The translations under genes were made by a program, and so were the position numbers. The notes below the pieces were generated by a model. That model saw only the letters and a list, made by a program, of their open reading frames with translations, did not search any database and was not told where the DNA came from. Below, in pieces: positions 2,905 to 63,925 of a stretch of DNA of 64,000 nucleotides (the stretch's first letter is position 1; each line of letters starts with the position of its first letter). Where the stretch lies: contig OY760427.1 of NCBI GenBank assembly GCA_963663495.1, forward strand, positions 5,586,170-5,650,169, in the 5' to 3' direction. Source of the stretch: Rhodothermales bacterium (GTDB lineage: Bacteria; Bacteroidota; Rhodothermia; Rhodothermales; Bin80).

Positions 2905-3534
2905 ATATCCGGTGAAGTACATATTAGCGATGGCATTTACTCTCTCAATTAGAGTAGGTTAGACCGCGGTCCGAAGGTCAATAGGCTGGCGTCGGTTGGA
3001 TGTGTAGGAGTCATAGTACCTAGCAGCGTGTTCGCAGACCCGTACACGGATCTATCTGATGCCCCGGGGCGCCTGTTTAGGGATTTCTATGCCGCTTTCT
3101 TAGCGATAGCTTGCTGCGACTCCTGCTAGGCTTTCCAATGATGAGGCAAGAGTTTAGCCATGTGGCCGGCAGGACATGTCGGAAGACTGCGTAGTACATC
3201 GCTAAGCCATTCAATTGGGTTTACCTCCTGCAGCTTGCATGGCGAGAAGTGCGTACGGCACGGCGGGCGCTGCCGCATGCGACCCCACAAACAGATGATT
3301 CTTCCGGCCCAGTGCTGTCGTACTTCCACGACGATGCACTTCAAACCCGCAGAGCCGCCTTCCGGCTCAAGGCGGATCACCTCTCTGGGCAGATTATCTG
3401 GAATCGGCTCGCGCACCGGCTTCTTCTTCCCAGGCCGCTCGCACTTTACCAAAATAAACTCGTCCTGGTCCTCCTCTGGCTCAACAGCTACCGGTTCCTC
3501 TTCAAACAAGCCAGCCTTGCAGCGCATTGTCCGC
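2905..3534 (-). mobile_element. Internally deleted IS66 remnant (right end plus pieces of tnpC)
   Basis: Degenerate right end ATATCCGGTGAAGTACAT. The C-terminal ...LLPHHWKA region is joined directly to the N-terminal PIPDNLPREVIRLEP region. Confidence 0.85.
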
Positions 3535-4384
3535 CGGCCGTACTCTCAGCGGGAGGATCCTCAGAAGCGGAAAGCCCCTCAAGGATTTTGTCAATGGTGC
3601 GCTTCGCATCGCTGATTTGAACGTGGAGCAACTCAAGTTGCTGGACAGTAACATTAATGCGGTCTGTGGAGGCCTCTACGACCCCCGGGGCAACGGTTAC
3701 GGGCTTGGATCGCAGTATATCCAGAACATCCTCAGCTTTGAAACGCCGTATGCGGTGTTTCTTCAACAACTTGGCTATCGTAGCGTGGCGAACCCGTCGG
3801 GCACGCTCTGGTGTGGAGGCAAGCTTCCAGAGTTCTAGCACCCATGGGGCTGCAAGGTTAACCTTGAGCTTGAGGAACTGCGGGTAGTAGCGCCATAGTT
3901 GCTCCCGCAAACGGTTGGTGCGACTCGTACGTTGGGCCGTAAGCTCGTCGGACATACGTGACCACTCACGCAACCGTACAATCTCGGCATCAAGCGCATC
4001 AAGCGCACGCAGACTATTCGGATCGGTTCGGATGGCGTCCGCCAGTACACGCGCATCTCGGCGGTCATCTTTTGCACCGGCCGGTGAAAACCGATCCCGG
4101 AAGCGATCCAGTTGCTTGGGGTTGATAGAATAGACCTGAAGCCCCCGATCAAACAGACTGTCTACCACGGGGCCGTGAGGAACCTCAATGGCTGCTGCGA
4201 TACACCCCGCATCGCAGCCTGCTATGGCAATGATCCAGTCGAGCAGCTGGCCAAGCCCCTCCCCCGAGTGAGGAAAGGCTCTCTCGCCAAGGACGGTACC
4301 GTCCTTGGCAAGCACGCAGGCTTGGTGGGACTCGGAGCCCCAGTCAATGCCTGCGAAGATGAAAGGTGAAGGGATTGTGGGCAT
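3535..4384 (-). pseudogene. IS110-family recombinase, C-terminally truncated
   Basis: ATG at 4384. DEDD RuvC-like motifs FAGIDWG, AIEVPHG and KDDRRDARVLA. The C-terminal Tnp domain is replaced by IS66 sequence at about 3535. Confidence 0.9.
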
Positions 4385-4388
4385 AGTT

Positions 4389-6311
4389 AGTGTTTGCCAG
4401 AAAAAGGTAGGAGGGCTGAAAAACGGCGAAACAAGGCCGTTTGATACTCGTTCTATCCACCTGTAAGCGTTACGGTTACAGATGGATATGAGCCATACCG
4501 TATTTGCACATTGCAGATTATTCAGCCAGCGTGTCTCTAACGAATGTTTGGCCAAATCCTTCTGTTTCGGGCGTTTTCATCGATATAAGGCCCCTTGGGG
4601 CCGATTATTCATACGATTAATACCATGCGGATTGTAGAGGATACACAGTTTAAGCTCGGGCAGGTCCCCATTGAAGAGATGACCTTCCACCCCAAAGACC
4701 GGGACGATATACCGGCAGTGCTAAAAGGTCTGCAGCACCTGTATTGCGACCCAACGGCTCGGCAGAAGATCTTTGAGATCCTGGAGACGCAGTTGCTTCC
4801 GAATATTGATTTGCAGCGTGGTCGTCCGGGGATGGCACTTTGGCGCGTCTTTGTCTTGGGGGTATTGAAGCAGGCCCTCAACTGCGACTTTGATCGTTTG
4901 AGGAGCCTGGCCGCCAATCATTTGGAGGTGCGCCAGATGCTGGGGCATACGAATTTCTGGGACGAGCCTGTCTATCAGCTGCAGACCGTTATTGATAACG
5001 TGAGCCTGCTAACAGCGGACATCCTGAAGCAGATCAACGATGCGGTGGTGGCTTGCGGTCACCGATTGGTAGAACAGGAGCCAGAGGAGCCGCTTCTTGG
5101 CCGGGTTGATTCGGCGGTGGCCAAAGCGAATGTGGAGTGGCCTACGGATGTTCGTTTGTTGTGGGAATCGATGCGGTGCCTGATTCGGGAGTTGCATTGC
5201 GCATGTGAGGCGCACAGCCTTGCGGGCTGGCGCAAGGCTGTGTACTGGAGTCGTACCTTGAAGAAGGCCTTCAACCGGGTGCGTACGCACCGTCAGTGGC
5301 GTGATGAGTCGAAGGTGAGAAAGTATGTGAAGATGTGTCGTGTTCTGATTGAGCGTGCGGAGAGCAGTGTCAGCGTGTTGAAGGAGAAAGACGCGGATCT
5401 TGAGGAGGTGTTGCGGTACTTGGCAGATGCACAAAGGCAGATAGATCAAGTAGATAGGCGTCTATTGAAGGGGGAGGTGATTCCGCATGATGAGAAGGTA
5501 TTTTCGATACATGAGCCGCATACTCGTTGGATCACCAAGGGGAAGGCGGGGGTGATTGCGGAGTTGGGTCTGCCGGTATGCGTGCTGGAGGATCAGCATC
5601 AGTTGATATTGTGGCATCAGATACTGCACGAAGGGGTGGATTCGGATATGATTGTGGGGTTTATGAAGGAAGCGAAGGATCGGTATCCGGCGATCACATC
5701 GTGCAGCATGGATAAGGGGTACTCATCGGTAAAGAACCGTAAGGCGCTGGAGCCGGTGTTGGACACGGTGATCATGCCGAAGAGGGGTAAGTTGAGCAAA
5801 GCGGACAAGGAGAGGGAATCCGATCCGAAGTTTGTGGAGGGTCGTCGTCAGCATCCGGCAGTGGAGTCGGCGATCAACAATTTGAATCATCGGGGCCTGG
5901 GTTTGATACGGACCCGTGGCAAGGAAGGCTTTGTTCGAACGGTGGCGCTGGTAGTGGTAGCGGCGAATGTGCACCGTATCGGGCAGATAGTGAAGCGGAG
6001 CGAGGAGCGACGAAGGCGGTGCGAGCAGGCCCGCAAGCGCGCGGCGTAGGTACTCGCGCGAGCGTCTTCAGCACAGAATCAAGGTAGCCTGCAAGGGCGA
6101 GAGGTCAACGTATGTTCATGCCTCGCTGATGGACGACAAAAACACGTCTGATCAACGTCAAAACCCTAGGATTGCCGGCGTGAGCGGACAAAGTCGGCAC
6201 CGTTACCGTCGAAAAATCCTTGCTGACTTGTCATTCCGATCCCCAATTCGAATTCCAGCCCCCCACTCAGCCAAGAGTCGCTCGCAAGACCATACTTTTC
6301 TGGCAAACACT
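4389..6311 (+). mobile_element. ISNCY-type insertion sequence, complete
   Basis: Perfect 16-bp TIR AGTGTTTGCCAGAAAA at 4389-4404 and 6296-6311. 4-bp duplication AGTT at 4385-4388 and 6312-6315. Confidence 0.9.
4625..6049 (+). CDS. DDE transposase (ISNCY/IS5-like)
   Basis: Intact ORF with GRPGMALWRVFVLG N-terminal block and acidic motifs RVDSAV, SMDKGY and VESAINNL. Family assignment by recall. Confidence 0.85.
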   Translation: MRIVEDTQFKLGQVPIEEMTFHPKDRDDIPAVLKGLQHLYCDPTARQKIFEILETQLLPNIDLQRGRPGMALWRVFVLGVLKQALNCDFDRLRSLAANHLEVRQMLGHTNFWDEPVYQLQTVIDNVSLLTADILKQINDAVVACGHRLVEQEPEEPLLGRVDSAVAKANVEWPTDVRLLWESMRCLIRELHCACEAHSLAGWRKAVYWSRTLKKAFNRVRTHRQWRDESKVRKYVKMCRVLIERAESSVSVLKEKDADLEEVLRYLADAQRQIDQVDRRLLKGEVIPHDEKVFSIHEPHTRWITKGKAGVIAELGLPVCVLEDQHQLILWHQILHEGVDSDMIVGFMKEAKDRYPAITSCSMDKGYSSVKNRKALEPVLDTVIMPKRGKLSKADKERESDPKFVEGRRQHPAVESAINNLNHRGLGLIRTRGKEGFVRTVALVVVAANVHRIGQIVKRSEERRRRCEQARKRAA

Positions 6312-6583
6312 AGTTATGCTATTTTGTGAAGAACGACAGTATCCGTACGGTGAAGTACATGGTAAAGCGGGCTTAGCATTGGTCTGCGTAGTCCGCTTGT
6401 AGAGCTTAGTGCAAGGTGATTATACGCCGGGTTTGGTGTGCCGACTTGGGAATTTCGGAGTGGTGTGCAGCTTATCGTCTTGGCGCCTGAATGCAGGCAG
6501 CAATCAGCGTCTTTGGGGACAAAAAACATGGGTTTTGGGGAGAAGAACCGGAACATTGTGGCGGACGCACATGTACACGAACT

Positions 6584-8221
6584 ATGCGGCCCAAGGTATC
6601 TTTCTCCCCCTCTTCTCCTGCCGGTGAAGCCCTTTTTCAGAGGCTAAGAAACCAAGAGGCTGAGAACAAGGATCTGCGAAAGCAGGTCCGTCGCTTGGAG
6701 AAAAAAGCCGATCGTCTATCCAAGAACATCGCGGATATGGCTGCGAAGATTAGCCATCTGGAAGACAGGTTGGAACAAGCGCATCGCCTACTCTCTGGCA
6801 AAAAGAGTGAGCGTTACACGCCGGCGGACAATGCGCAGCAAGGCCAGTTGTCTGGAGAGGAACCAGAAGCTGTTGAGCCCGAGGAGGAGGAGGAGGAGTA
6901 TGTCCCGGTAAAGCGCAAGCGGCGTGGGAAGAACAAGCCGGTGCGTGGGCCGATTCCGGACCATCTGCCCAGAGAGGTGATCCGCCTTGAGCCGGAGGGC
7001 AGCACCGCGGGTATGAAGTACATCGGCGAGGAAGTAACGGAGTACCTGGAATATGTGCCGGGCTTCACGAGGGTAGTACGGATTGTGCGGCCGAAGTACG
7101 TTGTCTGCAAGGAGCCTCGCAAGGGGGTGGTCATAGCGCCGTTGCCGAAGCGTGTCATACCGAAGGGGAAGGCGGGTCCGGGGTTGTTGGCGTATTTGGC
7201 GGTAGCCAAATACGTGGATCATATGCCGCTATACCGGCTGCGGAAGAAGTTTCAGCGCCATGGCGTGAAGCTATCGGCTGCTACAATGGGGGATTGGATT
7301 GCGAAGGTAGCGACGTATCTGGGTCCGTTAGGAGATGCGTTGCGTAAGGAGGTGCTTCGTAGCGGGTATCTGCAGGTGGATGAGACAACGTTCCCGGTGC
7401 AAAAGCCGAAGAAGGAAGGGAAGGAGAAGAAAGGGAAGAAAAACGAAGGAAAGACGCATCGCGGCTATCTTTGGGTATACCTGGCACCGCGGGCGAAGGT
7501 GGTGATGATGGATTACAGCCCGAGCCGTGCGCGCGCTGGACCGTGGGAATTCTTGCGCGGATATAGAGGGGCGATGCAAACCGACGGGTATGTGGTGTAC
7601 GATGCGTTTGGTACGCGGGGCGGGATAACGCTGTTTGGATGTATGGCGCATGCGCGTCGCAAGTTTTATGACTGCAGGAAAAAGGAGCCCAAGAAGGTGC
7701 GCCATGTAATGGAGGAAATCCGGCAGTTGTATGCGATAGAGCGTGGGTTGCGTAAGGAGGGAGCTGGTCCGGCTCGGCGTGTGGAGGTACGACAGGAGGA
7801 GGCACGGCCGGTACTGGAGAAGTTGAAGCCATGGCTTGAGGAGAGTCGTGAGCACCGGCCGAGTGCGGGATGGGATGAAGCCGTGGGGTACATGCTCAAC
7901 AGGTGGGAGAAGCTGGTTTGTTACCTGGAAGACGGCAAGGTTGAGATTGATAACAATCTGGTCGAGAACCAGATGCGAGCGATTGCGCTTGGTCGAAAAA
8001 ACCATCTGTTTGCGGGATCGCATGCGGCAGCGCAGCGGTCCGCAGTACTGTACTCTCTTTTTGCCACATGCAAGTTGCAATCGACAAACCCGATTGAATG
8101 GCTTACCGACGTACTACGCCGTCTTCCGACACATCCTGCCGACCGCATGGCTGAACTCTTGCCCCATCATTGGAAAGCTAGTCGGGACTTGCAGCAAGCT
8201 ACCGTCAAGAAAGCGGCATAG
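6584..8221 (+). CDS. tnpC: IS66 transposase TnpC
   Basis: Leucine zipper followed by GKKSER; LQVDETT, QTDGY, GCMAHARRKF, IDNNLVENQMR and ATCKL motifs. ORF is open from 6491; ATG 6584 is the likely start. Confidence 0.93.
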   Translation: MRPKVSFSPSSPAGEALFQRLRNQEAENKDLRKQVRRLEKKADRLSKNIADMAAKISHLEDRLEQAHRLLSGKKSERYTPADNAQQGQLSGEEPEAVEPEEEEEEYVPVKRKRRGKNKPVRGPIPDHLPREVIRLEPEGSTAGMKYIGEEVTEYLEYVPGFTRVVRIVRPKYVVCKEPRKGVVIAPLPKRVIPKGKAGPGLLAYLAVAKYVDHMPLYRLRKKFQRHGVKLSAATMGDWIAKVATYLGPLGDALRKEVLRSGYLQVDETTFPVQKPKKEGKEKKGKKNEGKTHRGYLWVYLAPRAKVVMMDYSPSRARAGPWEFLRGYRGAMQTDGYVVYDAFGTRGGITLFGCMAHARRKFYDCRKKEPKKVRHVMEEIRQLYAIERGLRKEGAGPARRVEVRQEEARPVLEKLKPWLEESREHRPSAGWDEAVGYMLNRWEKLVCYLEDGKVEIDNNLVENQMRAIALGRKNHLFAGSHAAAQRSAVLYSLFATCKLQSTNPIEWLTDVLRRLPTHPADRMAELLPHHWKASRDLQQATVKKAA

Positions 8222-9099: not shown

Positions 9100-11421
9100 T
9101 TATATGAACCCAGATGAATTCCCGTGCGAACATGCACTCAATTGTTCGTCTCTTACCTCGTATCCCAATTCGTATCCCAATGTCATTAGGTGTAACCTCT
9201 CTAGGCCACGCCACATGATCTGGTAACCCACCGGTCCATCACGAGTGCGGTTCTGATAACCGCCGAGCACCGCTACGATCAGGATAGCAGCTCCCAAAGT
9301 ACTGGGCTTCGGCAGCTTTACCCGTGCTGCATATCCATCCAAGAATCGCAGCTCCATCTCCGTGAAAAAGACATCCGCGTCCAGCTCCGGCACCTCCCGA
9401 CCCAATTGCACCAAGGTCATGACGCGCCAGGATATCACACAATACATCGTTATTGCTCGCTGCAGACGCAACGAGGTACGCAGACCCAAACGCTCTACCT
9501 TGCACCCGCTCTTGAGCACGCGGAAGAAGTCTTCCACCCGCCACCGCTTGAGATACATTGCCAACACCCGCCGTGCATCCGCTACGCTCCCTACCTCCAT
9601 GCTGGTCAATAGCATCCACTCCACCGGCGGCGCATCCCCCGGAGGCTCCACCTCCAACACATGCACCCCGTACATCACCACCGGCTCCTCCTCGTTCTTC
9701 GGATCCGGCAACAAGAACCTCCCGTAGCGTACCTCCGCATTGACCATCCGGTAACTGCGACCCTTCCGTGCCTGCTTGCGCGCCTGCTTCTTGCGCGCCG
9801 TCACCCGCTGTATCTCTATCTCCACATTCCCCGGAGCCTTACCACTGCGCATTACCGCAAACAGCTTGCGATCATCCAACAGCTTGCGATCATGCTTCGC
9901 TCGTATCAATACCTCCGCCTTACCCTGTCTGCGCTGCTCGGCAAACATAGCAAAGCTGTCCGCCTCCCGGTCCGCAACACAGATCACCTGCGTCTCGCCG
10001 GACAGCTCCTCCGCCGCCTCGCATATATCCTTGAACCCGTCTATCCACTGCTGCGTCCGCGGAGCATGCGGACCCTCCTCCGGATCCTTGAAGCTGCCAC
10101 GCAACACCCCCAACGTCAATCCATCCTCCGTCACCACCAGCGTCGCATGCAACGGCAACCCCAGCGTCTTCGCCGTCGTCTGATTACTCCCTATTACCTC
10201 CAAATCCGTACACGCCGGCCGCGTACTGTACCGCAACTTCGTCGTGTCCTGGATGCATAACACGGTCTCCTGACTACGCATGCGCTCTATCGTACGCCCA
10301 CGATGCGGCGCCAATATGTTCTCCGGCGTTACCGTTTTGTCCTTCTTGCTCTCCAATAACCGGTAATGCCCCTTCACCGCCGCGCGGTCCGCATCCGTAT
10401 GCGCGGTAATGCTGTGGCCTATCACATCGGCCAACATGGACGTACTCTTTACCAGTCGCACAGACAACCGCCTGTCTCCCAATGGCGCTCCGCCAAACTC
10501 CGTTTCGGCCCACTGCGCACTGTCAATCCCCTCGTGCGGATCCCTCACCGGACGCAACTCCTCCTCCGGTTCCCCCAAGGTCCCGCGCCATTCTTTGTCC
10601 AACTCGTATACATACAGCCCCTTGGGATCCTCTTCCTTTGCCTCCTTGTGCCGCTTTCCGCCTGCGGTATGGCCGATCAATACAAAATTGTTCACCTCAA
10701 AACACGCTCCTTCCCCTTGGGGATCCACATACGTTTCGACAACCCAGGGACGGTAACAGTACCGTGCCTGAAAATCATCCGCCAACCGTCTCAATACCTT
10801 ACCCAGTACATGGCTGGCCAAATCCTGACACTGCCCCCGTATCAGAAAACGACTCAAACACACCACACGGTGCAAATGCGCCTTGCGCTGCTCATCACTC
10901 CACGCCATCCAGTGCTCTCTGGGCGCCAGGCACAACGCCGCCGCCGAAAATCCCACCGCTCCCAGGTAACCATGGGCACTGCCTATCAGATAGCGTACCT
11001 GCGCTCCCACAAATGTGGTCGTACGCCTCGGATGCTCAAAGTGCAGCAACGTGTTCCACACCATACGCTGCTCGTCCGTCTCAACCAACTCAATCGTCAA
11101 CCCCCGGACACCGTGTACCGTGCCCGGTAACGCTATCGGATCCGGTACCCGCTCCTCGCGCCTACGCGGTTCCGCCTTAGCCGCATTACAATTCTCGGGC
11201 TTGGGCAACACAATCCTCCCCCGGGCCTCCAACTTCGATAAAGCCTGCGCACAGTTGCTCACCTGCGGTTCGCCCCGTGCATCAACAAACCCGAACTCTT
11301 CACAGACAGCGCGCGCTATCTGCGTGCGAAACCGCCAACGATCGTCGGCAAGAACCCTGTCCAAACGCTCTCCATTGCAGGGAGCGGTGAGCGTTCGTAA
11401 GACCTGACTTCGCTGAAGCAT
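9100..11421 (-). CDS. DUF4338 (DruA-like) domain fused to an IS4/Tn5-type transposase
   Basis: N-terminal VGAQVRYLI/HRVVCLSRFLI/PWVVETYVD block. C-terminal WAETEFGGAPLGDRRL, LCIQDTT, VADREAD and YLKRWRVEDFFRVLKSG (Y-R-E-K). Confidence 0.88.
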   Translation of the reverse strand: MLQRSQVLRTLTAPCNGERLDRVLADDRWRFRTQIARAVCEEFGFVDARGEPQVSNCAQALSKLEARGRIVLPKPENCNAAKAEPRRREERVPDPIALPGTVHGVRGLTIELVETDEQRMVWNTLLHFEHPRRTTTFVGAQVRYLIGSAHGYLGAVGFSAAALCLAPREHWMAWSDEQRKAHLHRVVCLSRFLIRGQCQDLASHVLGKVLRRLADDFQARYCYRPWVVETYVDPQGEGACFEVNNFVLIGHTAGGKRHKEAKEEDPKGLYVYELDKEWRGTLGEPEEELRPVRDPHEGIDSAQWAETEFGGAPLGDRRLSVRLVKSTSMLADVIGHSITAHTDADRAAVKGHYRLLESKKDKTVTPENILAPHRGRTIERMRSQETVLCIQDTTKLRYSTRPACTDLEVIGSNQTTAKTLGLPLHATLVVTEDGLTLGVLRGSFKDPEEGPHAPRTQQWIDGFKDICEAAEELSGETQVICVADREADSFAMFAEQRRQGKAEVLIRAKHDRKLLDDRKLFAVMRSGKAPGNVEIEIQRVTARKKQARKQARKGRSYRMVNAEVRYGRFLLPDPKNEEEPVVMYGVHVLEVEPPGDAPPVEWMLLTSMEVGSVADARRVLAMYLKRWRVEDFFRVLKSGCKVERLGLRTSLRLQRAITMYCVISWRVMTLVQLGREVPELDADVFFTEMELRFLDGYAARVKLPKPSTLGAAILIVAVLGGYQNRTRDGPVGYQIMWRGLERLHLMTLGYELGYEVRDEQLSACSHGNSSGFI

Positions 11422-11699
11422 GCCACAACATAAAAAACAAGTAGCAAAATGTCAAATACATGAAGTGGTAGGATGGCAGTGGAAGCGGCGCAGGAAGAGA
11501 TCGCGTATCCGCACGAGAGGACGGCATTATTCACCTCAAGTCACACACCATACCTGTCAGGTCGAAATACCCGAGATATTCCGACAGCCATGCCAGCGAG
11601 AGTTGACCAGAACTGACGAACAATCGAACCGTGTTGGATGATTTATGGGGGAAGGGCAGCGGTAGCCACACAAAATAGAGACACTCGGCGACCTTAAAC

Positions 11700-12050: not shown

Positions 12051-13303
12051 CCCGAAACGGTTAGTGCACACCGCAATATCACATACAGGCTGTTGCCCGA
12101 AAGTCGGAGTAACGCCAAGCAACTTGCTGGATTAGCGGGTGCGTGTAGGTTTGTGTGGAATGCCATCCTCGCAGAGCAGAGCGAGGCGTACAAGAAAGCG
12201 AAAGAGGCTGGAGAGAAGCCGCCCTCGGTAAGCTTCTTCTCGCTGGGGAAGCGGTTCACGGCGCTGCGCCGCACGGTCGAGTGGCTACCTGAATACTCCT
12301 TTGGTGTCGTTAGATACACATTGAAATATCAGGCGGATGCATGGAAGGCATTCTTCAAGGAGGGTAAGAGAAGACCGAGATTCCATTCCAGACGTGGTAG
12401 TACGCCTTCGTTCACGATCCCGGATTACGTAAGGGTTCGGGATGGCAAGCTGTATATCCCGAAAGTGGGATATATGGCGCTCCGCAGGCGGGGAGGCAAC
12501 CCGTACCCTGATGGTATACCCGTCAAAGCCACGGTAAAGAAGAACGCCGGCAAAGGGTATGCTGTCATCTGCTACAAGATGGAGGCACCTGTAATAGAGG
12601 ATACCGGCGGTGCTGTAGGCATTGACCGTAATTGCGGGCAGGTCGCTATGGTCTCCACAGAGGGCGATACAAGCATTATCAGACAACCGGATACCAAGCG
12701 TCTTGATGCCAAGTTGAAGCGGCATCAGCGAAGACTGGCGAGACAGAAGAAAGGCTCCAACCGTCGTAACAGGCGGAAGCATAGAATCGCCCGCATACAG
12801 CGCAAGCGTGCTAACGTCCTCAAGAATGCGAACCACCAGGTAAGTCGCAGTATTGCCAATTGCTCCTCAACGGTGATACTGGAGGACCTGAAGATCAAAG
12901 CGATGACATGTTCAGCTAAGGGGACGATGGAGAGCTTTGGCACAAACGTCAAACAGAAGTCTGGCCTCAACCGTGGGATACTGCGAACAGGTTGGGGCCA
13001 GCTGGAACAGATGCTGGGCTATAAGTGCCGCAAGGTGATAAAGGTTACCGCTGCCTATACGAGTCAGCGGTGTTCTGTGTGTGGGCACACAGAAGCGAGT
13101 AACCGTAAGACACGGAGCAAATTCACGTGTATGTCCTGTGGACATGCGGATCATGCAGACCTGAATGAGGCTGCAAACATACTGGCCTCCGGGATTGGGG
13201 CTTCTGCACGGCGAGGGGCGTTCGGGTTACCGACCCCTATGACCCGTGAAATTGATACTAGTGCCTCACTGTGTACAGTTGGTCACTCACGTATACATTT
13301 CCC
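12051..13303 (+). mobile_element. tnpB: TnpB cassette copy 1 (start codon and left TIR removed by IS66; right TIR degenerate)
   Basis: LAGACRFVWN, RuvC motifs GIDRN, ILEDL and HADLN, and a CSVC/CMSC zinc finger. Begins at codon 2 (CCC GAA ACG). The end GTATACATTTCCC (13291-13303) has lost the TAA, so the ORF reads through to 13499. Confidence 0.9.
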
Positions 13304-16922: not shown

Positions 16923-17663
16923 GGGAATTATATACGTGAGTGACCAACTGTACACAGTGAGGCACTAGTATCAATTTCACGGGTCATAGGGGTCGGTAAC
17001 CCGAACGCCCCTCGCCGTGCAGAAGCCCCAATCCCGGAGGCCAGTACGTTTGCAGCCACATTCAGGTCTGCATGATCCGCATGTCCACAGGACATACACA
17101 TGAATTTGCTCCGTATCGTACGGTTACTTGCTTCTGTGTGCCCACACACAGAACACCGCTGACTGGTATAGGCAGCGGTAACCTTCATCACCTTGCGGCA
17201 CTTATGCTCAGCATCCTGATCCAGCTGGCCCCAACCTGTTCGCAGTATTCCACGGTTGAGGCCAGACTTCTGTTTGACGTTTGTGCCAAAGCTCTCCATC
17301 GTTCCTTAGCTGAACGTGTCATCGCTTTGATCTTTAGGTCCTCGAGTATCACCGTTGAGGAGCAATTGGCAATACTGCGACTTGCCTGATGGTTCGCATT
17401 CTTGAGGACATTAGCACGCTTGCGCTGTATGCGGGCGATTCTATGCTTCCGTCTGTTACGACGGTTGGAGCCTTTCTACTGTCTCGCCAGTCTTCGCTGA
17501 TGCCGCTTCAACTTGGCATCAAGACGCTTGGTATCCGGTTGTCTGATAATGCTTGTATCGCCCTCTGTGGAGACCATAGCGACCTGCCCGCAATCACGGT
17601 CAATGCCTACAGCACCGCCGGTATCCTCTATTACAGGTGCCTCCATCTTGTAGCAGATGACAG
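16923..17663 (-). mobile_element. tnpB: TnpB cassette copy 2 (3' half, pseudogene)
   Basis: TIR GGGAATTATATAC at 16923-16935. RuvC and zinc-finger region has an internal stop. 5' half is replaced by the IS66 right end at 17664. Confidence 0.9.
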
Positions 17664-19245
17664 GTATCCGGCCGGTGAAGTACATTATAACCGAGGGTAT
17701 TTACTCTCTCAATTAGAGTAAGTTAGAGCGCGGTTCGAAGGTTTATAGGCTAGCGTCGGTTGGGCGTGCAGGAGTCAAGTACCTGACAGCGTATTCGCAG
17801 ACCCGTACACGGATCTATCGGATGACCCGGGCGCGCCTGTTTAGGGGCTCCTATGCCGCTTTCTTGACGGTAGCTTGCTGCAAGTCCCGACTAGCTTTCC
17901 AATGATGGGGCAAGAGTTCAGCCATGCGGTCGGCAGGATGTGTCGGAAGACGGCGTAGTACGTCGGTAAGCCATTCAATCGGGTTTATCGATTGCAACTT
18001 GCATGTGGCAAAAAGAGCGTACAGTACTGCGGACCGCTGCGCTGCCGCATGCGATCCCGCAAACAGATGGTTTTTTCGACCAAGCGCGATCGCCCGCATC
18101 TGGTTCTCGACCAGATTATTATCGATCTCAACCTTGCCGTCTTCCAGGTAACAAGCCAGCTTCTCCCACCTGTTGAGCATGTACCCCACGGCTTCATCCC
18201 ATCCCGCACTCGGCCGGTGCTCACGACTCTCCTCAAGCCATGGCTTCAACTTCTCCAGTACCGGTCGTGCCTCCTCCTGTCGTACCTCCACACGCCGAGC
18301 CGGACCAGCTCCCAGCTCCCTCCTTACGCAACCCACGCTCTATCGCATACAACTGCCGGATTTCCTCCATTACATGGCGCACCTTCTTGGGCTCCTTTTT
18401 CCTGCAGTCATAAAACTTGCGACGCGCACGCGCCATACATCCAAACAGCGTTATCCCGCCCCGCGTACCAAACGCATCGTACACCACATACCCGTCGGTT
18501 TGCATCGCCCCTCTATATCCGTGCAAGAATTCCCACGGTCCAGCGCGCGCACGGCTCGGGCTGTAATCCATCATCACCACCTTCGCCCGCGGTGCCAGGT
18601 ATACCCAAAGATAGCCGCGATGCGTCTTTCCGTTCTTCTTCGGCTTTTGCACCGGGAATGTTGTCTCATCCACCTGCAGATACCCGCTACGAAGCACCTC
18701 CTTACGCAATGCATCTCCTAACGGACCCAGATACGTCGCTACCTTTGCAATCCAATCCCCCATTGTAGCAGCCGATAGCTTCACGCCATGGGTATAGCGG
18801 CATATGATCGACATATTTGGCTACCGCCAAATACGCCAACAACCCCGGACCCGCCTTCCCCTTCGGTATGACACGCTTCGGCAACGGCGCTATGACCACC
18901 CCCTTGCGAGGCTCTTTGCAGACTACGTACTTCGGCCGCACAATCTGTACTACCCTCGTGAAGCCCGGCACATATTCCAGGTACTCCGTTACTTCCTCGC
19001 CGATGTACTTCATACCCTCGGTGCTGCCCTCCGGCTCAAGGCGGATCACCTCTCTGGGCAGATGGTCCGGAATCGGCCCGCGCACCGGCTTGTTCTTCCC
19101 ACGCCGCTTGCACTTTACCAGGACATACTCCTCCTCCTCCGGCTCAACAGCTACTGGTTCCTCTCCAAACAACCGGCCTTGCTGCGCATTGTCCGCCGGC
19201 GTGTAACGCTCACTCTTCTTGCCAGAGAGTAGGCGATGCGCTTGT
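17664..19245 (-). mobile_element. IS66 copy, right end plus frameshifted tnpC; left end lost
   Basis: TIR GTATCCGGCCGGTGAAGTACAT at 17664. Indels relative to 6584-8221 near 18310 and 18790. Truncated at 19245. Confidence 0.9.
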
Positions 19246-19297
19246 CCTAACTTCGCCATTCCGTAGGTTAGTAACACTACGAAATGGCGAAGTTAGG
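19246..19297. mobile_element. 52-bp miniature element made of IS1634-type ends
   Basis: 15-bp TIR CCTAACTTCGCCATT and AATGGCGAAGTTAGG. The right 31 bp match the IS1634 end at 58449-58479 with 2 mismatches. Confidence 0.7.
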
Positions 19298-43888: not shown

Positions 43889-44715
43889 AACTGTCGGCTC
43901 CAGACATTCTGCACGCCGGGCTGCGCACATCGCTTGCACGCCCCGACCTTGTGCTGTTGATGTATGGCATGCGGACAGCTGTTAGCCTTGCCGTGGCTGC
44001 CAACGTGGCACGTCACTTGGGCGCAATCGTGGATCATACGGGTTTCGGAGCGGAGCTTATGGCGGCAGATCTGGTCTTGTGGGCGGACATCATTGCTGAT
44101 CACCGTTCGTCGTTATTCAGGCTACCGGTGCATCTGTTGTGGCTTCTCCCACTATCTTTTGTCTGGAATGCCGTAGTGGAGGTTGGACTGCCGTACGCTT
44201 TACGGCCCGAACGCCGCTCTTTCTGGCGTGGGGCATGGTGGTATGGAGGTCGGAGCCTGCTCGTTGGTGTGGTGTATTTAATCGTTGCGGTTATAGGGAT
44301 TGCGCTGCTGCTGGTGGTGTCAGGAACGCTGGCTGGCGAGGTCGGCGGCGAAACAGCAAACTTCTGGCTTCTGGCAGTGGTCACGCCCGCGGCCGTGGTG
44401 GTGGTACTGATCGCGGCAGATTATTTGTGCAGTATTGCGCGCGGGAGCGTTGTGTGCCACGATGCGGGCGCGGTGGCATCGTTATTGCGGAGGCATCAGC
44501 CCGGGCTTATGGCGGCATATGCCGTATGGAAGGTCGCGTTGGGCGTTGTCCTTACGGCCTCCATTATCGTGCAAGTGTATCTGGGCGCCGGTGTAGCCTC
44601 CCTAGTGGTGCAGCAGATCCTGTTTCTCGGCGCAGTGGTGTGCGGCTGCGGATGGTACGGAGGCTTGGCGGCGGCGCTGGAGCGTCAATCAGCCGCCCGT
44701 AGTCAGGAACGTTAA
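43885..44715 (+). CDS. Hypothetical membrane protein
   Basis: ATGA overlap with the peptidase gene; several hydrophobic segments. Confidence 0.75.
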   Translation: MKLSAPDILHAGLRTSLARPDLVLLMYGMRTAVSLAVAANVARHLGAIVDHTGFGAELMAADLVLWADIIADHRSSLFRLPVHLLWLLPLSFVWNAVVEVGLPYALRPERRSFWRGAWWYGGRSLLVGVVYLIVAVIGIALLLVVSGTLAGEVGGETANFWLLAVVTPAAVVVVLIAADYLCSIARGSVVCHDAGAVASLLRRHQPGLMAAYAVWKVALGVVLTASIIVQVYLGAGVASLVVQQILFLGAVVCGCGWYGGLAAALERQSAARSQER

Positions 44716-44857
44716 AGAGAGCGGGCGCCCTGGCTTCGGTCAGCGCGATAGCCAGATGACACTTTGCAGGGAGGGGGCTGGTCCCGTTGGCCAAGTATTT
44801 GGAATACGCGCCGAAAAAGACACGGCGCTCCTGGTAGCCGAGCTTTTCAGGGGGGAA

Positions 44858-46125
44858 TTATATACGTGAGTGACCAACTGTACACAGTGAGGCACTTGTA
44901 TCAATTTCACGGGTCATAGGGGTCGGTAACCCGAACGCCCCTCGCCGTGCAGAAGCCTCAATCCCGGAGGCCAGTATGTTTGCAGCCGCATTCAGGTCTG
45001 CATGATCCGCATGGCCGCAGGACATACACGTGAATTTGCTCCGTGTCTTACGGTTATTCGCTTCTGTGTGCCCACACACAGAACACCGCTGACTGGTATA
45101 GGCAGCGGTAACCTTTATCACCTTGCGGCACTTATAGCCCAGCATCTGATCCAGCTGGCCCCAACCTGTTCGCAGTATCCCACGGTTGAGGCCAGACTTC
45201 TGTTTGACGTTTGTGCCAAAGCTCTCCATCGTCCCCTTAGCTGAACGTATCATCGCTTTGATCTTCAGGTCCTCCAGTATCACCGTTGAGGAGCATTTGG
45301 CAATACTGCGACTTACCTGGTGGTTCGCATTCTTGAGGATGTTAGCACGCTTGCGCTGTATGCGGGCGATTCTATGCTTCCGCCTGTTACGACGGTTGGA
45401 GCCTTTCTTCTGTCTCGCCAGTCTTCGCTGATGCCGCTTCAACGTGGTATCAAGACGCTTGGTATCCGGTTGTCTGATAATGCTTGTATCGCCCTCTTTG
45501 GAGACCATAGCGACCTGCCCGCAATTACGGTCAATGCCTACAGCACCGCCGGTATCCTCTATTACAGGTGCCTCCATCTTGTAGCAGATGGCAGCATACC
45601 CTTTGCCGGCGTTCTTCTTTACCGTGGCTTTGACGGGTATACCATCAGGGTACGGGTTGCCTCCCCGCCTGCGGAGCGCCATATATCCCACTTTCGGGAT
45701 ATACAGCTTGCCATCCCGAACCCTTACGTTATCCGGGATCGTGAACGAAGGCGTACTACCACGTCTTGAATGGAATCTCGGTCTTCTCTTACCCTCCTTG
45801 AAGAATGCCTTCCATGCATCCGCCTGATATTTCAATGTTTATCTAACGACAATGTTTATCTAACGACACCAAAGGAGTATTCAGGTAGCCACTCGACCGT
45901 ACGGCGCAGCTCCGTGAACCGCTTCCCCAGCGAGAAGAAGCTTACCGAGGGCGGCTTCTCTCCAGCCTCTTTCGCTTTCTTGTACGCCTCGCTCTGCTCT
46001 ACGAGGATGGCATTCCACACAAACCTACACGCACCCGCTAATCCAGCAAGGTGCTTGGCGTTACTCCGACTTCCGGGCAACAGCCTGTATGTGATATTGC
46101 GGTATGCACTAACCGTTTCGGGCAT
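44858..46125 (-). pseudogene. tnpB: TnpB copy 3, full length but disrupted
   Basis: ATG at 46125. A 17-bp tandem duplication CAATGTTTATCTAACGA (45833-45866) with an in-frame TAA breaks the gene. RuvC D/E/D and zinc finger are retained. The stop TAA lies inside the TIR. Confidence 0.9.
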
Positions 46126-46155
46126 GGCACTGTGGTATATAACTCCCTAATAGAT

Positions 46156-46334
46156 GGCAATTATATAGTATATAGCATGAATACCCACGTGTTGAGTTAT
46201 TTGAAATAATTGCAGTTTGTTCGTGAAAAGCGGGAACCGATTATGAACAACTGGCGAAAGCCATCCTGTCCGCACCACCAAAGCACAAAAAGTAACTCCT
46301 GCGAAAACGCGCGGCATTCAGCCATATAACTCCC
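46156..46334. mobile_element. MITE-like remnant with ISNwi-type ends
   Basis: Ends GGCAATTATATAG and CATATAACTCCC. Second, truncated, inverted copy at 58306-58449. Confidence 0.75.
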
Positions 46335-46643
46335 TTTCAGGGCCAAGCAACCTAGCAGCGTCAGGAGAATCTTCAACCCGAAACGAGTCGTATCCTGATT
46401 GTCGGCTTCGGTCCTGTCCAGAGAGTGCTACGAGCAGGCAAATGGCCAGAACACGGATCAGTCGCGGCGCAGTAGTCGTAAGCCAGTTAATGTGTGGCTG
46501 ACTGCCGCTGTGTTTTGTGACTCAGCGAATGAAGCTGGCACAGGATGAAGATGCAATTGCCAAGCTTTTCAGGCAATTGCCAACGGGTACTATCAAGATT
46601 CCACGAAGATGTATGCACCGGTGGTGCAGCTGGTAGGTGATCA

Positions 46644-48389
46644 ATGATGTACAGCGATAAAGACATTAAGCGCCAACTTCTGCTTGGAGAGGACAGCACC
46701 CGGGAATTCAAGCAGATTTCGCTTACGGGCAAACGCTTGGAGAAGCCGCATCGGGATAGTCTTGCCAACACGATCGCGGCGTTTGCAAACGCTAGGGGTG
46801 GCACATTGCTATGCGGTGTCACCGACACGGGCGATGTGCAAGGCCTGTCTCAAGAGGACATGAGCACGCTGGATGATATCGTGGCGGGGATCGCTACTGA
46901 TGTTATCAGGCCAGCCGTTCGCATCCACACATACCATGTAGCGTTGGATGGTAAGCTTCTGCTTTTAGTGGACATACCACAGGGCGAAGAGCAGCATGAT
47001 AGCCTTGGGGGGGCCTTTGTTCGGGTAGGTGCTTCCATCCGTCAACTTACGAACGATGAGCGGCTCCGATTGGCGCAGCGGCGGGGGCAGGCGCGCTTCC
47101 GTTCGTATGACGAGCAGCCGGTGCCGTGTACCGGGTACGGGACTCTTGACGCATCGCTTTGGAGACCACTACTGAGCGCCGAAGGCGCAAGGAATCCCAA
47201 ATCGGCCCTTCGTAAGCTGGCACTCTTGACGGATGACGAGGCGGGAATTCAGCGAGCCACTGTGGCAGGCATTCTCCTTTGTACTCAAAGGCCAGAGCAA
47301 TGGCTGCGCGCTGCCCGGATAACGGCAACCCGCTATCGCGGAAGTAATCGCGCATCCGGCCAGGTTGACGGGCAGGAAATTACGGGTCCGCTGAACAGGC
47401 AGATCGCTGATGCGCTAGCCTTTGCAGCAAGAAACATGCAGGTTGCGGCCCGCAAGGATCCTGGCCGCGTAGATCAGCCACAATACAGCAACCGAGCGCT
47501 GTTCGAATCCGTGGTTAATGCTGTCGTGCATCGTGATTATTCGATGCGTAGCAAGATTCGTTTATCCATGTTTGAAGATCGGCTTGAGCTTCAGTCGCCG
47601 GGCGCACTACCCAACAATCTGACCATCGAAAGCATGGCAGATCGGGAGTCCACGCGTAACGAAGCGTTGGCATCCGTGCTGGGGCGTATGCAGGTAGAGG
47701 GAGTGCATGGTTCACGGGATCGCATCTACTTCATGGAGTCTCGTGGGGATGGTGTGGCCATCATCCACCGCGAAACTACGGAACTTGCAGGCAAATCGCC
47801 GATGTACCGCCTGATTGACGAGTCCGAGCTATGCCTAACCCTCCCGTCTGCGATTCGGGAACCCAGCGCTGCCCGCACTGTGGTTTGCGTTCGGAGCGCC
47901 GGTCAACCGTTGCAGCGTGCGGATGTCTTGGTACTATTTCCCAATAAGACCTGGAAGCGCGCAGCCACGGACCAATACGGTGAGGCGCCCTTTGAGCTTC
48001 ATACGACCTTGCTACCGACCACCGTGTATGTGGCCGCACCCGGGTTTGGCGCACATGTAGAGCATGGCTGGGTGCCAAGCCGACGGGCGCTAGCCGTGGA
48101 GCTTGACGTATTGCCGGAAGGAGGCTCCAAAATATTTCCAGAGGGGACCGGCCATTTGCCGGGCTTGATGGGCCGTCTAAGCCCGATCCTTGACAGCCTT
48201 GAGCGAACCTATTTGTACGCATCAAACATAGCGGTCAACGAGGGGCGCGCGCAGCCGGTCTACTTCGTTCCAGGAGAAGACATGCGGCTGACCGATGCCG
48301 AAGGAAAGGAAATGTCCATTCGCGTGGTCGCAATAACCGGACGGTCGGCTCTTGTTGAGTATCGCCCGTTTCAGCTGGAGCAGGAGTAG
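46644..48389 (+). CDS. Schlafen/AlbA_2 domain + ATP-binding (RecG-C/HATPase_c_4-like) protein with an extra C-terminal region
   Basis: GEDSTREFK, IAAFANARGGTLLCGVTD, ESVVNAVVHRDY, DRLELQSPG and RNEALA motifs. Confidence 0.85.
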   Translation: MMYSDKDIKRQLLLGEDSTREFKQISLTGKRLEKPHRDSLANTIAAFANARGGTLLCGVTDTGDVQGLSQEDMSTLDDIVAGIATDVIRPAVRIHTYHVALDGKLLLLVDIPQGEEQHDSLGGAFVRVGASIRQLTNDERLRLAQRRGQARFRSYDEQPVPCTGYGTLDASLWRPLLSAEGARNPKSALRKLALLTDDEAGIQRATVAGILLCTQRPEQWLRAARITATRYRGSNRASGQVDGQEITGPLNRQIADALAFAARNMQVAARKDPGRVDQPQYSNRALFESVVNAVVHRDYSMRSKIRLSMFEDRLELQSPGALPNNLTIESMADRESTRNEALASVLGRMQVEGVHGSRDRIYFMESRGDGVAIIHRETTELAGKSPMYRLIDESELCLTLPSAIREPSAARTVVCVRSAGQPLQRADVLVLFPNKTWKRAATDQYGEAPFELHTTLLPTTVYVAAPGFGAHVEHGWVPSRRALAVELDVLPEGGSKIFPEGTGHLPGLMGRLSPILDSLERTYLYASNIAVNEGRAQPVYFVPGEDMRLTDAEGKEMSIRVVAITGRSALVEYRPFQLEQE

Positions 48390-58305: not shown

Positions 58306-58449
58306 GGGAGTTATATGGCTGAGTGCCACGCGTTTTCGCAGGAGTTACTTTTTGTGCTTTGGTGGTGCAGACAGGATGGCTTTCGCCAGTTCTTCATAAT
58401 CGGTTCCCGCTTTTCACGAACAAACTGCAATTATTTCAAATAACTCAAC
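58306..58449. mobile_element. Truncated inverted copy of the ISNwi-type MITE
   Basis: Starts GGGAGTTATATGG and is near-identical to the reverse complement of 46191-46334. Cut by the IS1634 end. Confidence 0.8.
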
Positions 58450-60513: not shown

Positions 60514-63364
60514 CTGCCCTTCCCCCATAAATCATCCAACACGGTTCGATTGTTCGTCAGTTTTGGTCAACTCTCGCTGGCATGGCTGTCGGAATATCTC
60601 GGGTATTTCGACCTGACAGGTATGGTGTGTGACTTGAGGTGAATAATGCCGTCCTCTCGTGCGGATACGCGATCTCTTCCTGCGCCGCTTCCACTGCCAT
60701 CCTACCACTTCAGGTATTTGACATTTTGCTACTTGTTTTTTATGTTGTGGCATGCTTCAGCGAAGTCAGGTCTTACGAACGCTCACCGCTCCCTGCAATG
60801 GAGAGCGTTTGGACAGGGTTCTTGCCGACGATCGTTGGCGGTTTCGCACGCAGATAGCGCGCGCTGTCTGTGAAGAGTTCGGGTTTGTTGATGCACGGGG
60901 CGAACCGCAGGTGAGCAACTGTGCGCAGGCTTTATCGAAGTTGGAGGCCCGGGGGAGGATTGTGTTGCCCAAGCCCGAGAATTGTAATGCGGCTAAGGCG
61001 GAACCGCGTAGGCGCGAGGAGCGGGTACCGGATCCGATAGCGTTACCGGACACGGTACACGGTGTCCGGGGGTTGACGATTGAGTTGGTTGAGACGGACG
61101 AGCAGCGTATGGTGTGGAACACGTTGCTGCACTTTGAGCATCCGAGGCGTACGACCACATTTGTGGGAGCGCAGGTACGCTATCTGATAGGCAGTGCCCA
61201 TGGTTACCTGGGAGCGGTGGGATTTTCGGCGGCGGCGTTGTGCCTGGCGCCCAGAGAGCACTGGATGGCGTGGAGTGATGAGCAGCGCAAGGCGCATTTG
61301 CACCGTGTGGTGTGTTTGAGTCGTTTTCTGATACGGGGGCAGTGTCAGGATTTGGCCAGCCATGTACTGGGTAAGGTATTGAGACGGTTGGCGGATGATT
61401 TTCAGGCACGGTACTGTTACCGTCCCTGGGTTGTCGAAACGTATGTGGATCCCCAAGGGGAAGGAGCGTGTTTTGAGGTGAACAATTTTGTATTGATCGG
61501 CCATACCGCAGGCGGAAAGCGGCACAAGGAGGCAAAGGAAGAGGATCCCAAGGGGCTGTATGTATACGAGTTGGACAAAGAATGGCGCGGGACCTTGGGG
61601 GAACCGGAGGAGGAGTTGCGTCCGGTGAGGGATCCGCACGAGGGGATTGACAGTGCGCAGTGGGCCGAAACGGAGTTTGGCGGAGCGCCATTGGGAGACA
61701 GGCGGTTGTCTGTGCGACTGGTAAAGAGTACGTCCATGTTGGCCGATGTGATAGGCCACAGCATTACCGCGCATACGGATGCGGACCGCGCGGCGGTGAA
61801 GGGGCATTACCGGTTATTGGAGAGCAAGAAGGACAAAACGGTAACGCCGGAGAACATATTGGCGCCGCATCGTGGGCGTACGATAGAGCGCATGCGTAGT
61901 CAGGAGACCGTGTTATGCATCCAGGACACGACGAAGTTGCGGTACAGTACGCGGCCGGCGTGTACGGATTTGGAGGTAATAGGGAGTAATCAGACGACGG
62001 CGAAGACGCTGGGGTTGCCGTTGCATGCGACGCTGGTGGTGACGGAGGATGGATTGCCGTTGGGGGTGTTGCGTGGCAGCTTCAAGGATCCGGAGGAGGG
62101 TCCGCATGCTCCGCGGACGCAGCAGTGGATAGACGGGTTCAAGGATATATGCGAGGCGGCGGAGGAGCTGTCCGGCGAGACGCAGGTGATCTGTGTTGCG
62201 GACCGGGAGGCGGACAGCTTTGCTATGTTTGCCGAGCAGCGCAGACAGGGTAAGGCGGAGGTATTGATACGAGCGAAGCATGATCGCAAGCTGTTGGATG
62301 ATCGCAAGCTGTTTGCGGTAATGCGCAGTGGTAAGGCTCCGGGGAATGTGGAGATAGAGATACAGCGGGTGACGGCGCGCAAGAAGCAGGCGCGCAAGCA
62401 GGCACGGAAGGGTCGCAGTTACCGGATGGTCAATACGGAGGTACGCTACGGGAGGTTCTTGTTGCCGGATCCGAAGAACGAGGAGGAGCCGGTGGTGATG
62501 TACGGGGTGCATGTGATGGAGGTGGAGCCTCCGGGGGATGCGCTGCCGGTGGAGTGGATGCTATTGACCAGCATGGAGGTAGGGAGCGTAGCGGATGCAC
62601 GGCGGGTGTTGGCAATGTATCTCAAGCGGTGGCGGGTGGAAGACTTCTTCCGCGTGCTCAAGAGTGGGTGCAAGGTAGAGCGTTTGGGTCTGCGTACCTC
62701 GTTGCGTCTGCAGCGAGCAATAACGATGTATTGTGTGATATCCTGGCGCGTCATGACCTTGGTGCAATTGGGTCGGGAGGTGCCGGAGCTGGACGCGGAT
62801 GTCTTTTTCACGGAGATGGAGCTGCGATTCTTGGATGGATAGGCAGCACGGGTAAAGCTGCCGAAGCCCAGTACTTTGGGAGCTGCTATCCTGATCGTAG
62901 CGGTGCTCGGGTGAGCGTGCGGTGAACTGCATCTTGATTAGGTGACGGGTTCTGTATAGCTTACCCGTAGACGTGAGAACCCAGACCCCGGACCGCATGG
63001 TACAGCCCAGACGTACGGCGGAAGAGATGTTTCCGCTGGTAGAGCAGTATAACGAAAGGACCCGGTCCGCAGCGGCGTCTTGCACAGAGCAGGGCATCTC
63101 GTACGGACCGTTGAATTACTGGAGGCAGAAGTATCGCCAGGAGACTGCAGCCGAGGGTTCGTGGATGTAGGCAATGCAGCGCCAAGGGAAGCGGCGCAGG
63201 AAGAGATCGCGTATCCGCACGAGAGGATGGCATTATTCACCTCAGGTCACACACCATACCTGTTAGGCCGAAATACCCGAGATATTCCGACAGCCATGCC
63301 AGCGATACTTGACCATACCTGCGAACAATCGAACCGTAATGGATGATTTATGGGTACAGGGCAG
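60514..63364 (+). mobile_element. Second copy of the DUF4338-IS4 element (non-matching flanks)
   Basis: Arms 60514-60692 and 63187-63364. Flanks GCAAAGCT and CGCTAGCC differ. Confidence 0.9.
60752..62842 (+). pseudogene. DUF4338-IS4 transposase with a premature stop and 3' deletion
   Basis: Near-identical to 9100-11421. TAT to TAG at 62840; the last part of the gene is deleted near 62910. Confidence 0.88.
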
Positions 63365-63456: not shown

Positions 63457-63925
63457 GGGCGGTCCGTGCGAGACTGGTATTGCAGCGGCAGATGGGGTTA
63501 AGCCACAACCTGCTTTCAATCCCCTAGTAGGCGGGGCGGTCCGTGCGAGCTACTTCAGTAGAAGAAGCGACTAAACTATTGGCGTAGCTTTCAATCCCCT
63601 AGTAGGCGGGGCGGTCCGTGCGAGGTATGCGACGGATGTTATGACGGATCATACGTGTGCGATCTTTCAATCCCCTAGTAGGCGGGGCGGTCCGTGCGAG
63701 TAAGAGGGAGCTCTTACAACTACGCATCTGACGTACAAGACTTTCAATCCCCTAGTAGGCGGGGCGGTCCGTGCGAGATCTTGATTTTATTCATTAAATG
63801 GCAAGAGCCATGACTTTCAATCCCCTAGTAGGCGGGGCGGTCCGTGCGAGCGTTTGCGGTTACGCGGAGCGGGGGAGGTGCGTTAGGTCTTTCAATCCCC
63901 TAGTAGGCGGGGCGGTCCGTGCGAG
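63457..63925 (-). CRISPR. CRISPR array: 6 full 37-bp repeats, 1 partial repeat and 6 spacers (36-40 bp); possibly type III
   Basis: Identical repeat CTTTCAATCCCCTAGTAGGCGGGGCGGTCCGTGCGAG at 63513, 63588, 63664, 63741, 63814 and 63889. The last 16 nt occur at 63457-63472. The reverse complement ends in ATTGAAAG. Confidence 0.97.

Follow-up and report, generated by a model that had tools for sequence, protein, structure and literature searches.

The window analyzed here, a 64,000-nt stretch of Rhodothermales DNA (contig OY760427.1), contains a tnpB-bearing unit at 44853-46334 that is very probably, judging from sequence comparisons, a dead non-autonomous element of the insertion sequence (IS) family IS1595, with tnpB and its putative omega RNA as sole cargo and an IS1595 DDE transposase as partner. 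The locus has terminal inverted repeats (TIRs) of IS1595 type and an 8-bp duplication of an AT-rich target, as its relatives do, and it encodes no transposase. IS1595 transposase genes are present between the same ends, both in the same lineage and on the contig from which the window most likely derives. An earlier sequence-only reading of this DNA had proposed that such a transposase mobilizes TnpB in trans, and shared ends, 8-bp target-site duplications (TSDs) and co-residence support this proposal. Coordinates without a contig name are positions in the window, and the tnpB gene at this locus (copy C) is read on the minus strand.

The right-end TIR, read inward, is GGGAATTATATACGTGAGTGAC at 44853-44874 on the minus strand; it recurs exactly at 16923-16944 and with two mismatches at 13282-13303, while no occurrence is expected in shuffled sequence. 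The tnpB stop codon TAA (44858-44860, minus strand) falls within this repeat. At the other side of the gene, the ATG (46125-46123) directly follows an inner left TIR, GGGAGTTATATACCACAGTGCC at 46126-46147 on the minus strand, which occurs only once in the window and is identical to the right TIR at 17 of 22 positions. The sequence-only reading had described exactly this TIR, gene and TIR arrangement at 44853-46147, including the abutting ATG and the stop codon inside the right end, together with a right boundary shared by three copies (13303, 16923 and 44853), and all of these details were recovered. In the alignment of the three copies, homology breaks off precisely at the end of ...TATATAATTCCC, beyond which the three sequences are unrelated.

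The same reading had noted an 8-bp TSD around the composite. The duplication exists, as TTTCAGGG is found at both 44845-44852 and 46335-46342, and it surrounds a 1482-bp unit (44853-46334) and not the 1295-bp one, whose flanks differ (TTTCAGGG and TAATAGAT). The additional sequence consists of an 8-bp spacer, TAATAGAT at 46148-46155, which is probably an old target copy, and of a 179-bp left-end module at 46156-46334 on the minus strand, which ends in an outer TIR, GGGAGTTATATGGCTGAATGCC (46313-46334), and contains a promoter-like site (46195>46167). Since the module, the 8-mer and the inner TIR-ATG junction also precede tnpB on an independent metagenome contig, L129, whose TnpB belongs to the same 90% cluster, the mobile unit of this lineage is 44853-46334 and the inner left TIR is a relic. 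The proposed minimal cassette is therefore a genuine TIR, tnpB and TIR unit, but an inner one; the last unit to transpose was the longer one. The only blastn match of the module among L001-L128 and the window was a second window copy; its homology to L129 came from a later alignment, in which the outer ~105 nt of the module correspond to the end of an IS1595 element on that contig. A left-end module of a truncated fourth copy is located at 58306-58449 on the plus strand, with a flank that reads ...ccgG, then ATAGATTG, then GGGAG. We also observed a sigma-70-like match in the right TIR (TGTACA-16-TATAAT, 10/12; minus strand 44857-44884), pointing outward into the flank.

The product of copy C (44858-46125, minus strand) carries the Pfam domains HTH_OrfB_IS605, OrfB_IS605 and Cas12f1-like_TNB, with PF01385, PF07282 and PF12323 all above cut-offs, and it aligns end to end with ISDra2 TnpB. 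Its GID, ILEDL and HADLN motifs align with the RuvC motifs GVD, TEH and RDEN of ISDra2 TnpB, which we take to contain the catalytic residues D191, E278 and D361. Codons for this D/E/D triad are kept in copies A, B and C, in agreement with the sequence-only reading, and also in intact relatives. Copy C is split into two open reading frames (ORFs), one of 89 aa (45856-46125) and one of 325 aa (44858-45835): codon 90 is TAA, against TAC in copy A, and the frame is shifted by a 17-bp tandem duplication (45835-45868, minus strand). Repair by deleting one 17-bp unit was attempted in silico and leaves the ORF broken because both units carry the nonsense codon. Copy A (12051-13303, plus strand) has an IS end at 12050 in place of its left 26 nt and has lost its stop codon. 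In copy B (16923-17663, minus strand), an IS end at 17664 takes the place of the 5' half, and the remainder has an in-frame stop and a frameshift. The missing parts of copies A and B were not found elsewhere in the window. All three tnpB copies are thus pseudogenes without present function, wreckage within an IS-rich region. The truncations of copies A and B are at different tnpB positions (12050/12051 and 17663/17664) and involve the same kind of IS end, ...GTACTTCACCGGNCGNATAC; IS66-family genes are found close to them, at 17851-19277 and 6491-8221.

A genome scan identified 71 related loci with 43-78% identity in metagenome-assembled genomes (MAGs) of Rhodothermales, Paracoccaceae, Arenicellales and other Gammaproteobacteria. 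Every relative that has kept both ends has inverted repeats beginning GGGnnTTATAT, down to ~44% identity, with TIR lengths from 22 nt to ~70 nt. We counted TSDs in 35 related tnpB elements with both ends, allowing the ends a 1-nt shift. A perfect 8/8 TSD was present in 22 of these elements (21 without the shift) and a match of at least 7/8 in 25, compared with a chance of 1.5e-5 per element for one 8/8 match. Additional perfect 8-bp TSDs were found at L003, L004 and L134. The duplicated 8-mers are AT-rich and apart from that variable. Other copies therefore end in TIRs with TSDs and not at IS605-type hairpin boundaries.

Left ends are of several types. A TIR directly before the ATG is the true left end in L134, L003 and L004, and in the window lineage the gap between TIR and ATG is 0-3 nt, which leaves no room for the left-end hairpin of an IS200/IS605 element, as had been noted from the window alone. 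In L013, L009, L018 and related Paracoccaceae loci, the left end (~5800-5870) is a ~70-nt inverted copy of the right end (~7190-7260) that extends over the final codons of tnpB and a portion of the omega-RNA-like region. A pattern search did not find a left TIR in L130 and L131, and these copies are probably truncated. The Paracoccaceae elements also have a perfect hairpin, GTGACGGGAA...TTCCCGTCAC, ~35 nt upstream of the ATG. We considered this hairpin as an IS605 left end and rejected it, as the TIR and TSD are ~150 nt further out; a TTGACA-type promoter-like sequence just upstream, recognized by eye, suggests a structure in the 5' untranslated region.

The targets of L001, L003 and L004 are similar, each with a G before the 8-mer (ATTCATTA, ATTGATTA and ATTCGTAA). 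A common group II intron target was considered for these three loci and rejected, tblastn placing only L003 in a maturase gene, so that the similarity reflects a target preference. The L003 tnpB element is inserted within a maturase gene that belongs to a decayed group II intron (5891-5976 and 9127-9360), following the ...RGWI codons, and an intact paralogue has the matching 8-mer once only. Separately, a group II intron (5' GTGTGCC..., encoding a 441-aa reverse transcriptase/maturase) was observed within the TIR of three tnpB elements, at ~2030-5982 in the left TIR of L002 and at 7223-~9120 in the right TIR of L003 and L004. The insertion point, between TATATA and ATTCCC, is constant, and the orientation in the right TIR is opposite to that in the left TIR; this placement looks like retrohoming into TIR sequence. 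The intron leaves the TSDs of L003 and L004 intact.

Transposase genes with the Pfam domains DDE_Tnp_IS1595 and Zn_ribbon_IS1595 were found between the same TIRs. Near tnpB elements there are an IS1595 element at L025:691-2022 (TIR GGGAATTATATACGAGAATCCC, TSD CTTCCAAT) and another at L063:2894-5621 with a DNA methyltransferase passenger. A further IS1595 element is L118:1914-3414, the left TIR of which is identical to the right TIR of the window element at 22 of 22 positions (TSD TATCCAAA). The ends are common to L118, L025, L063, L108, L111, L126 and L129. An exact 19-mer of the TIR, GGGAATTAYATRCGTGAGT, was found at 57 loci in a metagenome scan, with an IS1595 transposase gene beside ~25 of them and tnpB beside 5. 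Complete elements from these loci, among them L118, L111, L108, L126, L096 (975 bp) and L089 (a 483-bp miniature inverted-repeat transposable element, MITE), all have 8-bp TSDs. In L129, which belongs to the window's own lineage, an IS1595 element (1564-3329) is located 670 bp upstream of the tnpB element. The transposase with matching ends that the sequence-only reading had called for is thus present. By eye, these transposases have a DE...D...E(x7)K arrangement and the element ends fit the ISNwi1-type consensus; annotated plasmid relatives identified by tblastn are merely labelled 'IS1595 family'. We take the ISNwi1 subgroup of ISfinder to be defined by the end consensus ggnnatTAT, which GGGnnTTATAT fits, and by a DDEK-type catalytic motif.

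The transposase of L129 is 97% identical to P0149, whose cluster has 20 members; the GPVEVDEAYFGG motif is intact in 13 of the 15 members listed. The L129 transposase (1743-2636) and P0149 read VEVAEAYFGG, while the other 13 listed members read VEVDEAYFGG. The aspartate of this motif is probably the first catalytic residue, so that the former would be a dead variant beside intact ones. The P0149 cluster and the TnpB cluster P0001 are recorded on the same 5,919,514-bp contig. The 123-aa ORF of copy B is identical to P0144, also recorded on this contig, so the window very likely comes from the genome to which it belongs. P0001 has 212 distinct members, a large number of which are full-length (416 aa) and keep the D/E/D motifs, and a second cluster consists of 28 fragments; the TnpB variants encoded on the 5.92-Mb contig number over 200 and its IS1595 transposases about 20. 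Since the 1.27-1.48-kb units are filled by tnpB and none has a transposase of its own, the tnpB elements are non-autonomous. A serine recombinase was not found within any TIR-bounded unit examined.

The ratio of nonsynonymous to synonymous substitution rates (dN/dS) between TIR-bounded tnpB copies is 0.12-0.15 at deep divergence and 0.26-0.57 among close copies, indicating that TnpB is under purifying selection and that the cargo is functional across the family. The last ~160 nt of the elements show a conserved fold. RNAalifold analysis of 18 family members gave 20 pairs, 12 of them with compensatory changes, and one hairpin alone occurs in the variants CGG/CCG, TGC/GCA, GGC/GCC, ATC/GAT and ACC/GGT. 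Toward the right end, the conserved fold is followed by a variable hairpin and then by the TIR. The fold sits where an omega RNA is expected and has the expected form, and we annotate 44853-45010 (minus strand), which overlaps the tnpB 3' end and has the right TIR as its 3' end, as a putative omega-RNA scaffold. Rfam gave no match, either in a gathering-threshold scan of the whole window or in a permissive scan of 44700-46400. The right TIR is joined to the putative RNA and the ORF end throughout the clade, down to 44% identity.

A single invariant base was found beside the left duplication. Read on the tnpB sense strand, the base preceding the left TSD copy is G in all 22 independent insertions with a perfect TSD, while no bias is seen at the mirror position, which follows the right copy (A4 C8 G5 T5). 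Of the 13 elements that lack a perfect TSD, 12 have the same G before the left copy, as do the window composite (plus-strand C at 46343, next to the TSD copy at 46335-46342), the 58306 fragment, L129 and L134. Among elements with the same ends and either a transposase or no gene, G was found at 7 of 19 ends (9 elements). A conserved motif of 4-5 nt adjoining the left end was not found. We considered a 9-bp TSD with the G included and discarded it, since the right copy is preceded by the element's own C. The side on which the G is found agrees with TnpB geometry, and the G may be at least part of the target-adjacent motif (TAM) and a means of self-avoidance.

These observations can be combined into a possible life cycle. 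An IS1595 transposase would bind the TIRs and move the tnpB element in trans. The right TIR would serve a double duty, as a transposase site and as the last ~22 nt of the omega-RNA scaffold, tnpB stop codon included, and this could account for the conservation of the right end and the repeated replacement of the left end, which is a 22-nt TIR abutting the ATG in some relatives, a ~70-nt inverted right-end copy in Paracoccaceae and a 179-bp IS1595-derived module in the window. The transcript would leave through the right end, so that the guide would consist of the 8-bp TSD copy and the flank beyond it. TnpB would then cut the empty site, 5'-...G, 8-mer and right flank, and the invariant G ahead of the 8-mer would form all or part of its TAM. 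The occupied site would be spared, having C (...CCC) in place of G. Cutting by IS605 TnpB has been shown to promote recopying and retention of the element, and the cut proposed here could act in the same way. We put forward only tentatively, and with rather less than even confidence, the broader possibility that a large, cross-phylum TnpB lineage has adapted to a TSD-making DDE transposon in three linked respects, with the TIR as the 3' end of the scaffold, the TSD as the first 8 nt of the guide and a one-base G/C discrimination.

Several observations weigh against this interpretation as a whole or in part. None of the window ORFs of at least 200 aa is an IS1595 transposase, while IS110, IS66 and IS4/Tn5-like elements are among them, and in none of ~80 loci examined do tnpB and a transposase share one TIR pair, so that the partnership is based on shared ends and co-residence. 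The two TIRs of the window are alike at merely 16-17 of 22 positions. A perfect TSD is absent in 13 of the 35 elements, presumably as a result of recombination between copies. The control for the G is small, with 9 transposase-bearing elements and G at 7 of 19 ends, and a TAM of a single base is unusual for TnpB.

Three other explanations could be considered. The first is an ordinary tnpB-only element of the IS200/IS605 family (IS1341 type) moved by a Y1 TnpA, in which the resemblance of the ends to those of IS1595 elements is a by-product of hairpins or TATATA-palindromic termini. TnpB is indeed a typical ISDra2-like protein, and the Paracoccaceae hairpin ~35 nt before the ATG resembles an IS605 left end at first sight, but this hairpin is ~150 nt inside an element bounded by TIRs and flanked by a TSD. 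Elements of the IS200/IS605 family have neither TSDs nor TIRs (PMC13565253), while 8/8 duplications surround more than 22 independent insertions here, the left end lacks a conserved 4-5-nt motif, and identical ends enclose IS1595 transposase genes; we therefore consider this explanation highly improbable. It is also improbable, if somewhat less so, that the gene is a passive hitch-hiker, i.e., a tnpB fragment trapped in an IS1595-derived MITE and amplified with it, the nuclease having no role. Such an origin would suit the decay of every window copy and the presence of the same ends on MITEs and other cargo (L089 of 483 bp, L096 of 975 bp, the L063 methyltransferase passengers). However, a dN/dS of 0.12-0.15 at deep divergence, the many full-length 416-aa copies with D/E/D motifs, compensatory changes that preserve the RNA fold, and the fusion of the right TIR with the putative RNA and ORF ends in all of the clade, including members at 44% identity, would not be expected of an inert passenger, and an orientation-specific G beside the TSD is hard to explain without the nuclease.

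The third alternative concerns only the G, which could stem from target selection by the transposase, or from a staggered cut of 9 bp, instead of being a TnpB TAM. This is the strongest of the alternatives, although we still regard it as unlikely. Mild enrichment of G in transposase-bearing elements (7 of 19 ends), taken together with C at 8 of 22 mirror positions, suggests a weak symmetric G-N8-C preference. A two-fold symmetric transposase complex should give a symmetric preference, however, so a one-sided G is not expected from the transposase, and the counts are 22 of 22 upstream of tnpB versus 8 of 22 on the other side. The 9-bp cut is excluded by the element's own C before the right TSD copy. 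An IS1595-family element carrying tnpB as cargo remains our preferred interpretation of the locus.

TnpB in TIR-bounded DDE transposons has been known since 2023 for other families. Altae-Tran et al. (2023, PNAS; PMC10691335) described six DDE-transposase-associated TnpB branches, DDE-1 to DDE-6, all with inverted terminal repeats and defined by a tnpB 3' end within 250 bp of an element end; for some solo TnpBs, whose ends are those of transposase-bearing elements, movement in trans was proposed. The partners named are IS630 in that study and ISL2 and IS1031 in a 2026 review (PMC13565253), which considers DDE partners rare since TSDs and excision through double-strand breaks suit TnpB homing poorly. 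IS1595 is named neither in the main text of PMC10691335 nor in PMC13565253, and a literature search for TnpB with IS1595, ISXO2 or ISNwi1 found nothing relevant. The new TnpB-transposon association claimed by the sequence-only reading is thus not new as a principle, while the IS1595 partner appears to be undescribed. The window element has inverted terminal repeats, a tnpB 3' end less than 250 bp from one end, and ends shared between solo tnpB and transposase-bearing elements, as the published DDE-associated TnpBs do. It differs from them in its IS1595 partner, in that no two-gene element was seen, in the stop codon and putative RNA end within the TIR, in the very high copy number, and in the one-sided G beside a variable 8-bp TSD. 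The features that appear to be new are the IS1595 partner, the fusion of TIR, putative RNA and ORF ends, the scale of amplification and the one-sided G.

With ISNwi1-like IS1595 elements and MITEs, the tnpB elements share DDE transposase partners with an N-terminal zinc ribbon, GGGnnTTATAT TIRs, 8-bp TSDs and the capacity for passengers such as the L063 methyltransferase. Unlike those elements, they have no transposase of their own, so that they are not IS in the strict sense, and their passenger is an RNA-guided nuclease whose guide RNA would share transposon-end sequence. With the IS1341 group of IS200/IS605 elements, which includes ISDra2-type TnpB, they share the domain set, the RuvC triad, an omega-RNA-like region over the gene 3' end and a guide expected from the right flank. 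In contrast to that group, they have TIRs and 8-bp TSDs, and they lack subterminal hairpin ends, a conserved left-end TAM and a Y1 TnpA. IS200/IS605 and IS607 elements are both described as free of TIRs and TSDs (PMC13565253), so the presence of these features excludes membership in either family. By analogy, the nearest functional counterpart is Fanzor1. Fanzor1 and Fanzor2* are carried by eukaryotic cut-and-paste transposons in which the TIR is part of the guide-RNA scaffold, and the Fanzor1 scaffold takes in both TIR and TSD (Yoon et al. 2023, PMC10711439). The arrangement described here likewise has a TnpB-family nuclease as cargo of a non-autonomous transposon with TIRs and TSDs, and putatively a TIR in the guide-RNA scaffold, but it is prokaryotic, involves another transposase family and has a variable TSD sequence. 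Being variable, the TSD cannot be scaffold and would have to fall in the guide.

Other features of the window include a 2.4-kb IS that is present as two inverted copies with 100% identity (9263-11659 and 60514-62910) and encodes a 773-aa protein with a DruA-like domain (PF14236) and a Tn5-type DDE transposase (DNA-binding, DDE_Tnp_1 and Tn5 dimerisation domains). A gene adjoining the tnpB element (46644-48389) encodes a 581-aa defence-like protein with Schlafen/AlbA_2 and HATPase_c_4 domains. A CRISPR-like array at 63508-63925, reaching the window end, has at least 6 repeats of ~37 nt (CTTTCAATCCCCTAGTAGGCGGGGCGGTCCGTGCGAG) with a period of ~75 nt, and an ORF resembling the C-terminus of Cas3 is located at 699-1373.

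TnpB, from which Cas12 descends, is also a compact genome editor, and to our knowledge nearly all understanding of its biology comes from IS605 and IS607 elements, whose excision leaves no scar. Here the DDE partnership is abundant, with more than 200 TnpB variants in one genome and dozens of copies in other MAGs, and the TnpB-IS1595 association is old, extending over several phyla and down to about 44% identity, and under selection. For annotation, the tnpB-only genes of this clade should be placed with IS1595-mobilized elements and not with IS605 relics. The data also yield a testable layout for guide and TAM when the TSD is variable. TnpBs of this clade would have an unusually relaxed targeting range, should the requirement for a single G be real. 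If the proposed adaptation to a TSD-making transposon is also true, they would represent a near-TAM-less (N-G) TnpB and a prokaryotic counterpart of Fanzor1-type arrangements, and would thereby account for the coexistence of RNA-guided homing and a DDE transposase.

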